Source: a virus (lineage: Duplodnaviria > Heunggongvirae > Uroviricota > Caudoviricetes). From it: a DNA stretch of 46,544 nt. Shown here piece after piece: positions 11,158 through 12,923 of the stretch. The DNA is taken from the IMG/VR virus record IMGVR_UViG_2851955134_000005; one strand, given 5' to 3'. The notes beneath the pieces were generated by a model. It had not been told where the DNA came from, ran no database searches, and worked only from the letters and a program-made list of their open reading frames with translations. The position numbers and the translations under genes are program-made. How positions within the stretch are numbered: the first letter of the stretch is position 1; each line of letters begins with the position of its first letter.

Positions 11158-12106
11158 TCTTGCATGCCGTATTGGTCTGAATGAGGCAATTGTGTTGCAG
11201 CAGCTTCATTACTGGCTGAATGAAACGAATTCAGGCACTGAGCATGGCGGAATTCGCTGGGTTTATAACACGACAGAACAGTGGCTGGAGCAGTTTCCGT
11301 TCTGGTCAGAGTCCACTCTGAAACGCACATTTGCAAGCCTGAAATCACTTGGGGTTTTGCGTCGCGAGCAACTCAATAAATCGAAGCGTGACATGACCAA
11401 CTTCTACACGATCAACTATGAAAGTGAGCTTTTAGAAGAGGTCAAAGTGAACGAATCCATCAGGTCAAAATGCACTTCTCCATCGGGTCAAAGTGACCTG
11501 ATGGATGGGCGCAAAATGACACGATCCATTGGTTCAAAACGACACGCTGTCATCGGGTCAAAATGGCCCAATGATCTTACAGAGAATACAACAGAGATTA
11601 CTACAGAGAATAAAACCTCTTCTCGTCCGGACGCTTCGCAACCGGACACGCAAACGGCTGAACAGGAGTTTTTAACTCGCCATCCTGATGCGGTTGTATT
11701 CAGCCCTAAAAAGCGCCAGTGGGGAACGCAGGATGATTTGACCTGCGCACAGTGGCTCTGGAAAAAAATCATCGCCCTGTACGAGCAGGCTGCCGAATGT
11801 GACGGCGAGGTGGTTCGTCCCAAAGAACCGAACTGGACAGCCTGGGCAAACGAAATTCGCCTGATGTGTGTGCAGGATGGTCGTACTCACAAACAAATCT
11901 GCGAGATGTACAGCCGCGTCAGCCGCGATCCGTTCTGGTGCCGTAACGTGCTCAGCCCGTCGAAGCTGCGGGAAAAATGGGATGAGCTTTCCCTGCGCTT
12001 ATCGCCGTCCGTCAGCACGTACACCGAAAAACGCGAAGACCCGTACTTCAAATCCAGTTACGACAACGTGGACTACAGCCAGATCCCGGCAGGATTCAGG
12101 GGGTGA
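11114..12106 (+). CDS. replication initiation protein (lambda O-like), origin iterons inside the gene
   Basis: Position after cro/cII; N-terminal DNA-binding region; iteron array within the coding sequence as in lambda O. Confidence 0.6.
   Translation: MSLLMTSQPIVINRDLACRIGLNEAIVLQQLHYWLNETNSGTEHGGIRWVYNTTEQWLEQFPFWSESTLKRTFASLKSLGVLRREQLNKSKRDMTNFYTINYESELLEEVKVNESIRSKCTSPSGQSDLMDGRKMTRSIGSKRHAVIGSKWPNDLTENTTEITTENKTSSRPDASQPDTQTAEQEFLTRHPDAVVFSPKKRQWGTQDDLTCAQWLWKKIIALYEQAAECDGEVVRPKEPNWTAWANEIRLMCVQDGRTHKQICEMYSRVSRDPFWCRNVLSPSKLREKWDELSLRLSPSVSTYTEKREDPYFKSSYDNVDYSQIPAGFRG
11439..11578 (+). repeat. origin iterons, five copies of GGTCAAARTG-like repeat
   Basis: Copies at about 11441, 11463, 11486, 11532 (variant) and 11566; first three spaced about 22 bp. 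Confidence 0.5.
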
Positions 12107-12597
12107 TCATGAGTCTTTTGAATGACGTTCAGAAATTCATTGAAGCCCATCCGGGGTGTACTTCCGGAGACATTGCGGATGCTTTTGCAGGTTACTCACG
12201 GCAGCGCGTACTGCAGTCAGCAAGCAAGTTACGTCAGAGTGGGCCTGTGGCTCACCGTTGTGAAGGGGATACACGCAGACATTTCCCGCGCCTGACTGAG
12301 AGAGCGCGGGAGGCGGAACCGCAACCAGTTCGTGAAACTAGACCTGTGCGCAATTTCTATGTCGGCACTAACGACCCGCGGGAGATTTTGTGCCTGACCC
12401 GCCAGGCTGAAGAACTGGAGTCCAGGGGCTTATACCGTCGTGCTGCAACGGTGTGGATGGCGGCATTCCGTGAAAGCCATTCCCAGCCAGAACGAAACAA
12501 TTTTCTGGCGCGTCGTGAGCAGTGTTTACGGAAAAGCAGCAAGCGCGCTGTATCGAGTGATGAGTGGTATCTGTCAGGGAATTACGTGGGGGCGTAA
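12103..12597 (+). CDS. hypothetical regulator, possibly PerC-like (164 aa)
   Basis: Segment RQAEELESRGLYRRAATVWMAAF recalls the PerC family; weak. Confidence 0.35.
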   Translation: MIMSLLNDVQKFIEAHPGCTSGDIADAFAGYSRQRVLQSASKLRQSGPVAHRCEGDTRRHFPRLTERAREAEPQPVRETRPVRNFYVGTNDPREILCLTRQAEELESRGLYRRAATVWMAAFRESHSQPERNNFLARREQCLRKSSKRAVSSDEWYLSGNYVGA

Positions 12598-12923
12598 TGA
12601 CGACGTTAACTCAATGCCAGCAGCAGGTGCTGGATATGCTGATTTCTTACCAGAAAGAACGTGGCTTCCCGCCAACCAATCAGGAGGTGGCAACCATGCT
12701 GGGATACCGTTCGGTGAATGCAGCGGTGGAGCATCTTCGCGCACTGGAGAAAAAAGGCGTCATCACGATAAAGCGTGGCGTGGCCCGGGGGATAAAGCTT
12801 CATACCGCGGTGAAGGACGACGACAGCGAGGCGGTCGGGATTATCCGCTCACTGCTTGCCGGTGAGGAAAACGCAAGGCTGCGTGCAACCCACTGGTTAC
12901 ATGAGAGGAGCCTGAAAGTATGA
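12597..12923 (+). CDS. LexA DNA-binding-domain-only protein (108 aa, no S24 protease domain)
   Basis: MTTLTQCQQQVLDMLISYQKERGFPPTNQEVATMLGYRSVNAAVEHLRALEKKGVI parallels E. coli LexA N-terminus [56 protein letters not shown]; TAATG coupling to upstream gene. Confidence 0.6.
   Translation: MTTLTQCQQQVLDMLISYQKERGFPPTNQEVATMLGYRSVNAAVEHLRALEKKGVITIKRGVARGIKLHTAVKDDDSEAVGIIRSLLAGEENARLRATHWLHERSLKV

Follow-up and report, generated by a model that had tools for sequence, protein, structure and literature searches.

The stretch of DNA analysed here (the window, 46,544 nucleotides of IMG/VR virus record IMGVR_UViG_2851955134_000005, Caudoviricetes) is a lambdoid prophage located between zur and dusA in E. 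coli, and it is collinear with the prophage of strain M21816. Its early operon carries a gene for a 108-residue homologue of the SOS repressor LexA that is devoid of the Peptidase_S24 domain, for which we use the name LexN. A preliminary description of the locus had likened this product to LexA's N-terminal DNA-binding domain without the autoprotease, and the assignment was borne out by sequence comparison. Residues 1–65 match the Pfam family LexA_DNA_bind (PF01726; E = 2.9e-19, 69 bits vs a cut-off of 23.7), BLASTP aligns LexN with E. coli LexA at 43% identity across 90 residues (E = 3e-22), with residues 1–70 being gap-free, and the top matches in a sequence search of solved structures (PDB) are LexA entries. 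A Pfam scan revealed no Peptidase_S24 match in LexN, which ends at residue 108, and the protein fails TIGR00498, the NCBIfam lexA equivalog, scoring 71.9 vs a cut-off of 110.95 and covering profile positions 1–91 of 203 only. LexN is thus not LexA proper, lacking both the S24 domain and a conserved cleavage site.

The lexN family and its early operon

LexN matches phrog_362 over its entire length (residues 1–108 on positions 1–106 of 106, E = 2.4e-58), and the family further includes orf42 of phage SfV, annotated as "unknown", and proteins named "LexA family protein" in RefSeq, from which LexN differs in nothing essential. Position before rusA, DUF968 and Q in the early right operon is common to this phrog_362/SfV orf42 family. 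Homologues of 105–135 amino acids (aa) populate prophages of Escherichia, Shigella, Salmonella, Citrobacter, Cronobacter, Klebsiella, Enterobacter, Kosakonia and Hafnia, most of them carrying the annotation "LexA family transcriptional regulator/protein". LexN of the window is 95–98% identical to genes of SfV, SfII, SfIV, cdtI, mEp460 and Stx2a/Stx2c phages, and its Klebsiella relatives, 130-aa proteins, share 43% identity. When complete E. coli genomes were searched with a 301-bp probe spanning the lexN start, the gene was present in 2623 of 5426, in at most four places per genome. Our literature search found no functional study of the enterobacterial family; only gp6 of the Bacillus thuringiensis tectivirus GIL01, discussed below, surfaced.

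Ratios of nonsynonymous to synonymous substitution (dN/dS), estimated by the Nei-Gojobori method, are about 0.1 in head and tail alike, amounting to 0.053/0.49 (head) and 0.152/1.44 (tail) against Citrobacter braakii, and to 0.013/0.107 (head) and 0.034/0.365 (tail) against cdtI. Both parts of the protein are therefore under purifying selection. Being shorter than LexA, LexN might be taken for what is left, without function, of a decaying full-length repressor gene of the LexA or cI type. The uniform size across genera, the conserved tail, the low dN/dS, the occurrence in so many complete E. coli genomes and the translational coupling to both flanking genes (on the downstream side by an ATGA overlap with rusA, 12920–12923) all but exclude such a pseudogene.

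Within the window, the early operon comprises, in this order, genes for a cII-like protein, a 112-aa open reading frame (ORF), a replication protein, PerC/YfdN, LexN, RusA, a KilA-N protein, a DUF968/HNH protein and the late antiterminator Q (Table 1). The placement of lexN between the replication genes and Q recurs in phages of E. coli, Citrobacter, Salmonella and Cronobacter. Given this position in the rightward operon, and given that no convincing intrinsic terminator was found from the candidate pR promoter to lexN, LexN should be an early or delayed-early lytic product that is made after repressor inactivation. The timing of the operon is predicted to be set by the cI-like main repressor. 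Because the operon lies downstream of this switch, LexN would act after the induction decision, and control of prophage induction by LexN, one of the functions initially envisaged, is unlikely for a gene located downstream of the cI-like repressor and candidate pR, and upstream of Q.

Table 1. Coordinates of lexN, its protein segments and the surrounding features discussed in the text (window positions unless another record is named).
Feature	Position	Strand	Remarks
Main prophage repressor, cI-like	9223-9849	-	HTH_3 + Peptidase_S24; predicted to be RecA-cleavable
Candidate pR, head of rightward early operon	9892-9920	+	TTGACC-17-TAACAT, consensus match only
perC/yfdN, upstream of lexN	12103 (GTG) or 12109 (ATG) to 12597	+	PF06069, phrog_1324, RefSeq yfdN
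perC/yfdN-lexN slot	window 12595-12600; L001 7484-8137; L019 3403-6004		Methyltransferase cassette hot-spot
lexN	12597-12923	+	ATG start, 108 aa; stop 12921-12923; ORF call, Pfam, phrog_362, BLASTP
LexA-type winged helix-turn-helix domain of LexN	12597-12803	+	Codons 1-69; Pfam, AlphaFold2, Foldseek
LexN recognition helix	12714-12752	+	Residues 40-52; S39, N41, A42, E45 kept
LexN tail	12804-12920	+	Codons 70-108: flexible linker, then two-helix hairpin H75-88, H93-103
rusA (Holliday-junction resolvase)	12920-13309	+	Most constant neighbour of lexN
Late antiterminator Q, end of early operon	15107-15901	+	PF03589, 1.3e-53
Late-region N6/N4 DNA methyltransferase gene	17185-18237		
LexA box 3 TACTGTAAAAATAAACAGTG	17193-17212	.	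Over codons 3-9 of methyltransferase gene; 22.2 bits; candidate target
DinI-like gene, 82 aa	43635-43883	-	PF06183, 1.1e-19; predicted control by boxes 1 and 2
LexA box 1 TACTGTGTTTGTATACAGTG	43897-43916	.	Promoter of DinI-like gene; 23.6 bits; candidate target
LexA box 2 AACTGTATGGATAAACAGTG	43925-43944	.	In tandem with box 1; 21.6 bits

A LexA-type head joined to a conserved helical tail

An AlphaFold2 model of the LexN monomer, computed from a 30-sequence family alignment (mean predicted local distance difference test, pLDDT, of 80), shows the head as a LexA winged helix composed of helices 6–22, 28–35 and 40–52 and a β-hairpin at residues 56–68 (strands 56–58 and 66–68). In a Foldseek search of the PDB, the head superposed on the LexA-operator complex 3jso with a root-mean-square deviation of 0.9 Å over 68 columns, at 50% identity. 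LexA contacts its DNA through S39, N41, A42, E44 and E45, all located in helix III (PMC3091678). The equivalent residues of LexN, which follow the same numbering, are S39, N41, A42, V44 and E45, such that four of the five are kept, and the recognition helix reads SVNAAVEHL in LexN vs SPNAAEEHL in LexA. Across the 30 family members, no variation occurs at S39, N41 or the wing residues R64-G65-I66. As the reading residues are kept, whereas the helix of gp6 differs, LexA-type half-sites are the favoured target of the E. coli-type protein, and the early idea of a non-cleavable LexA mimic would fit this conservation.

The head is followed by 39 residues that are unrelated to LexA. That much had been recognised at the outset, when the segment was described as some 40 residues of unrelated C-terminal sequence; it is not junk, however, but a conserved two-helix element under purifying selection. 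Linker residues 71–80 are predicted with lower confidence (pLDDT about 61), and the two tail helices form a hairpin with a pLDDT of about 85. Foldseek matched no PDB fold to residues 70–108, nor did the tail retrieve a significant Pfam family when searched alone. The pattern E-[AV]-x-x-[LIV]-[LI]-[RQK]-x-[LM]-[LIV]-x5-[AS]-x-x-x-A-x-x-[WFY]-L-x-x-x-G is retained in homologues with as little as 40% identity, A97 and L101 do not vary among the 30 family members, and the tail displays a broad conserved hydrophobic face. LexN is thus a phage-encoded, protease-less LexA homologue set apart by a conserved helical tail and by LexA-like reading residues.

We propose that the hairpin is a dimerisation or partner-binding element. 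Five further S24-less proteins (140–222 aa) carry two tandem LexA DNA-binding domains in one chain, suggesting that two heads are needed, and the presumed pairing of LexN chains through the hairpin would fit with this arrangement. Alternatively, LexN could be an adaptor, whose head tethers it to DNA while the tail recruits or sequesters a further protein, for instance RNA polymerase, RecA or the product of a neighbouring gene; the function would then reside in the tail and not in occupancy-based repression. The tail is indeed constrained as strongly as the head, has the hydrophobic face with its invariant A97 and L101 and matches no known dimerisation module, and the synteny of lexN with rusA, KilA-N or Rha/ANT, and DUF968 genes is conserved. 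We nevertheless regard an adaptor function as improbable: no partner is indicated, the Klebsiella relatives are without adjacent rusA and KilA-N genes, and for a hairpin of two helices and about 30 residues, the simplest explanation is that it dimerises a protein reading palindromes.

In LexA, the cleavage site Ala84-Gly85 resides in an exposed loop, and the catalytic dyad Ser119/Lys156 belongs to the S24 domain that also forms the dimer interface. In the BLASTP alignment, LLAGE of LexN (residues 86–90) is paired with VAAGE of LexA, which raised the question of a cleavage-loop mimic. We rejected this candidate, as the segment is mostly predicted helix, with the helix ending at A88 in the AlphaFold2 model rather than presenting an exposed Ala-Gly loop of the LexA type, and as the AG pair is not conserved, being replaced in the family by ER, TR, SG, DD or AE. 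Lacking an S24 domain, LexN is not expected to undergo autocleavage stimulated by activated RecA.

LexA boxes and a candidate role in SOS control

The window contains three exact CTGT-N8-ACAG sites vs 0.7 expected. We scored them with a position weight matrix (PWM) built from 22 E. coli SOS boxes, whose own scores span 15.5–28.3 bits, and all three sites (21.6–23.6 bits) fall inside this training range. The single LexA box mentioned in the preliminary description is real, with the additions that it has a tandem partner and that it belongs to the promoter of the minus-strand DinI-like gene; the same arrangement of tandem boxes upstream of a DinI-like gene is found in cdtI. The third box covers the beginning of the late methyltransferase gene. 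Its first half-site is kept in phages of Klebsiella, Citrobacter, Morganella and Providencia, at 72–84% identity and with changes in the spacer, and as second half-site Klebsiella phage Kp4866-6 has CCAG, the other three phages having ACAG. This SOS box (17193–17212) lies within the first nine codons of a late gene. Some 90 nucleotides upstream of it (from 17095) are also conserved and fold better than 200 of 200 shuffled sequences (z = -3.4); in the region from Q to the methyltransferase gene, nothing scored above the Rfam threshold. CTGT/ACAG pairs at N13 spacing number four in the window where 0.6 would be expected, yet shuffled sequences also reach up to four.

Beyond the window, lexN lies behind a canonical SOS promoter in the Klebsiella relatives (4361–5393), where a promoter TTGAAC-17-TATACT overlapping TACTGTTTATTTATACAGTA precedes dinI, a 96-aa ORF and lexN, with DUF968 and lysis genes following; no convincing terminator was detected between this promoter and lexN. 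The three strong boxes of the window and this dinI-lexN arrangement lend support to a link between LexN and the SOS system, as far as sequence can indicate. In SfIV, a strong LexA box (TACTGTATTTATGAACAGTA) lies at 32639, between a rusA pseudogene and a KilA-N gene. In this SfIV segment (32198–32760), the rusA gene beside lexN is interrupted by a stop codon. The KilA-N gene is a variant one, with the box TACTGTATTTATGAACAGTA some 100 bp upstream of it, so that this KilA-N/antirepressor-like gene may be LexA-controlled.

Modulation of SOS-box occupancy, one of the functions initially put forward for the protein, remains our leading idea. In our best explanation, to which we assign a probability of roughly 0.4, LexN would be a RecA-insensitive surrogate of LexA that keeps SOS-type operators closed while the phage grows lytically, in other words a phage-made paralogue of the SOS repressor that is blind to DNA damage. 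The S24 domain of LexA confers both dimerisation and RecA-triggered self-cleavage. Neher et al. reportedly found in 2003 that a C-terminal signal marks the natural N-terminal fragment of LexA for ClpXP, a signal that LexN would lack. LexN would in effect represent a genetically encoded, stabilised N-terminal fragment of LexA equipped with its own C-terminal module. The LexA fragment itself still binds SOS boxes and represses, and its removal by ClpXP is needed for the SOS response (PMC10584840, summarising primary work). We envisage that the hairpin pairs two LexN chains, placing two heads on the CTGT/ACAG half-sites of LexA-type operators. The protein would be produced only once the prophage repressor is cleaved, that is, when host LexA is also being destroyed, and would re-occupy the SOS boxes after the loss of LexA. 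Its targets would include LexA-controlled accessory genes of the prophage itself, namely the gene for the DinI-like protein and perhaps that for the late methyltransferase, along with SOS promoters of the host or of rival elements. In consequence, the SOS burst would turn into a pulse, and the SOS programme would stay shut during the lytic phase.

Several observations weigh against a surrogate of this kind. E44 of LexA is a valine in LexN, E45 gives way to D in Cronobacter, to G in one group of Citrobacter and to L in Klebsiella, and position 42 varies between A, S, G and T across the family. A universal mimic of LexA at SOS boxes should not tolerate such variation, which looks more like diverging specificities; the specificity of LexN may differ between subfamilies. 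Furthermore, no strong LexA box was found within about 5–6 kb in the lexN regions of Cronobacter, Citrobacter freundii and Salmonella. Conversely, the Citrobacter phiNP, Morganella and Providencia phages that possess box 3 are absent from the LexN tblastn matches listed, and since box 3 thus occurs in phages not listed with LexN, host LexA alone could explain the boxes. On its own, the LexA head is a weaker DNA binder than the dimer of full-length LexA, keeping "some" SOS-box binding (PMC10584840). Finally, the predicted template modelling score of the monomer model is 0.54, so that the placement of the tail against the head is not fixed, and dimerisation through the tail is something that we only infer.

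Some of these points would be accounted for if LexN were a transcription factor specific to the phage and had an operator of its own, comparable to gp6 of GIL01; a captured LexA head would then have drifted to a phage site and would activate or repress a particular phage promoter instead of acting on SOS boxes at large. We consider this the main rival, somewhat less probable than the surrogate. As the one phage-borne LexA homologue of the head-only kind to have been characterised, gp6 activates the late promoter P3 at GaCACAnnTGTGaC (PMC6182141). Like LexN, it is phage-encoded, consists of an S24-less LexA winged-helix head and derives from an early gene. BLASTP yields no alignment between the two proteins, their homology being visible at the profile level and for the head only (hhalign 96.5%, 33% identity, 63 columns). 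The differences at positions 42, 44 and 45 among LexN subfamilies are what diverging specificities would predict, many lexN regions are without a nearby SOS box, and predicted viral proteomes, among them those of unrelated phages, often contain LexA homologues of the head-only kind. On the other side, gp6 comes from another phage family and host phylum, comprises 66 aa and has no tail, whereas LexN carries the additional conserved hairpin in a 39-residue tail. The gp6 helix, VSHKTAHRYL with an essential K38, reads a non-LexA site, having altered the very residues (S39, N41, A42, E45) that the E. coli/Shigella type of LexN keeps within a near-LexA helix. Late transcription in these phages relies on Q antitermination, the Q gene is present, and there is no obvious need for an activator. 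When ten early regions bearing lexN were searched for a common non-SOS palindrome, only motifs inside homologous coding sequence were retrieved.

The same recognition residues, combined with the missing LexA dimerisation domain, could also be read as those of a LexA antagonist, in which LexN monomers on half-sites block the cooperative binding of LexA dimers and thereby derepress or prime SOS genes. This we judge highly improbable: any protein bound to a promoter-overlapping operator would itself repress, LexN would, according to its operon position, be made while LexA is already being destroyed, and the conserved tail would be left without a role. Returning to the RecA-insensitive surrogate, its most far-reaching version would make LexN a master "off switch" of the SOS response, re-silencing every LexA-controlled promoter after lytic commitment. 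The affected genes would range from repair and mutagenesis functions to SOS toxins, genes for colicin lysis and, in competing prophages, antirepressors under LexA control, with the benefit that the phage's own burst is protected and rivals are suppressed. A scope this broad appears doubtful to us.

Among the closest known systems is the N-terminal fragment of LexA (residues 1–84), which shares its head with LexN at 43% identity and leads one to expect RecA-independent SOS-box binding of LexN. The natural fragment is transient and degraded by ClpXP, whereas LexN is the product of its own gene, has a C-terminal module and is predicted to be stable. Non-cleavable LexA(Ind-) alleles, in turn, retain the S24 dimerisation domain that LexN is without. 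Prophage DinI-like proteins and GIL01 gp7 tune the SOS response from a mobile element, a goal that LexN would share under our best explanation. DinI is thought to bind RecA-DNA filaments (PMC3121763), and for gp7 the point of action is the LexA protein (PMC6182141), whereas LexN would act on the operators themselves. The window prophage has its own DinI-like gene, and in Klebsiella dinI lies upstream of lexN with one ORF between them. This Klebsiella order of SOS box, dinI, ORF and lexN resembles the LexA-controlled dinI-antirepressor-irsA operon of Gifsy phages, with LexN in third place. An identity of LexN with IrsA was rejected, as IrsA (STM1020) is a DUF1367 protein (4.2e-98) showing no meaningful alignment to Klebsiella LexN; the middle Klebsiella ORF was likewise rejected as GftA, having no similarity to it, and a paper on STM14_3218-3220 of Gifsy-1 proved unrelated to LexN.

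If the surrogate function were true, a large share of the strains of E. coli, Shigella, Salmonella, Klebsiella and Cronobacter would harbour a phage-controlled override of the SOS response during induction, bearing on the timing of Shiga-toxin phage induction, on the competition between prophages and colicin plasmids, and on SOS-dependent mutagenesis under antibiotics. It would also provide a natural counterpart to the need, known from the laboratory, to destroy the LexA N-terminal fragment for SOS. Should the "off switch" hold, it would constitute a widespread, unrecognised layer of SOS control, given that roughly every second complete E. coli genome carries the gene, as do Stx2 phages. Were LexN instead to have its own operator, it would be the second independent recruitment of a LexA head by phages as dedicated regulator, after GIL01 gp6, and would shed light on the re-use of repressor heads. 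The gene is very common and easy to delete, and the surrogate hypothesis is attractive and cheap to test, with potentially broad consequences.

The PerC junction and other features of the prophage

Upstream of lexN, the preliminary description had placed a regulator-like gene coupled to it by TAATG. The junction is real (12595–12599), the TAA stop of perC (12595–12597) sharing its last A with the ATG of lexN, and the gene product belongs to the PerC family (PF06069, 7.9e-10, 39.3 bits vs a gathering score of 22.6, residues 98–152). It also matches phrog_1324, "transcriptional activator", and is named yfdN, PerC family regulator, by RefSeq in near-identical prophages. What does not hold is a conserved functional pairing of the two genes. 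A direct perC-lexN junction is present in the window, SfIV, 2H10 and Citrobacter prophages, whereas in mEp460_4F5, SfV, SfII, M21816, Cronobacter and indeed most relatives, a 654-bp Dam-type methyltransferase gene is inserted between perC and lexN. The window copy, SfIV and 2H10 are thus without the dam cassette that usually precedes lexN in the SfV orf42 family. In Salmonella, the slot accommodates two methyltransferase genes, one for Dam and one for a C5 methylase. No PerC is annotated before dam in cdtI, where the order is replication-dam-lexN, and Klebsiella has dinI and another ORF, with no PerC, upstream of lexN. Comparison of the window with mEp460_4F5 indicates that the TAATG of the window is the perC-dam junction joined to lexN, with the cassette boundaries at a shared ATGA. 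Because the genes in the perC-lexN stretch all overlap by 1–4 bases, translational coupling is generic here. An obligatory functional PerC-LexN pair was rejected, given that the slot holds zero, one or two methyltransferase genes and that cdtI and Klebsiella are without PerC there.

A PADLOC search found no defence-system membership. The XRE-family repressor gene of the M21816 prophage contains a very strong LexA box (TACTGTTTTTACATACAGTA, 25.9 bits, 7687–7706); the immunity region of the window differs from that of M21816, and the box TACTGTTTTTACATACAGTA is absent from it. The integrase gene (43945–45042, minus strand) abuts dusA (45131–46168), as in integrative elements that target dusA. 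At the far end of the window, the annotation of the collinear strain places a Panacea-domain gene next to zur. Between Q and the lysis genes lies a 141-aa ORF (16182–16607) with a lipoprotein-like signal (MKKVLIAAIGFCLVGC). It is flanked by two copies of one terminator hairpin (AACCCGCCACTGAGCGGGTTTTTT), at about 16011–16036 and 16685–16710, and resembles an accessory gene inserted as a self-contained unit (moron).

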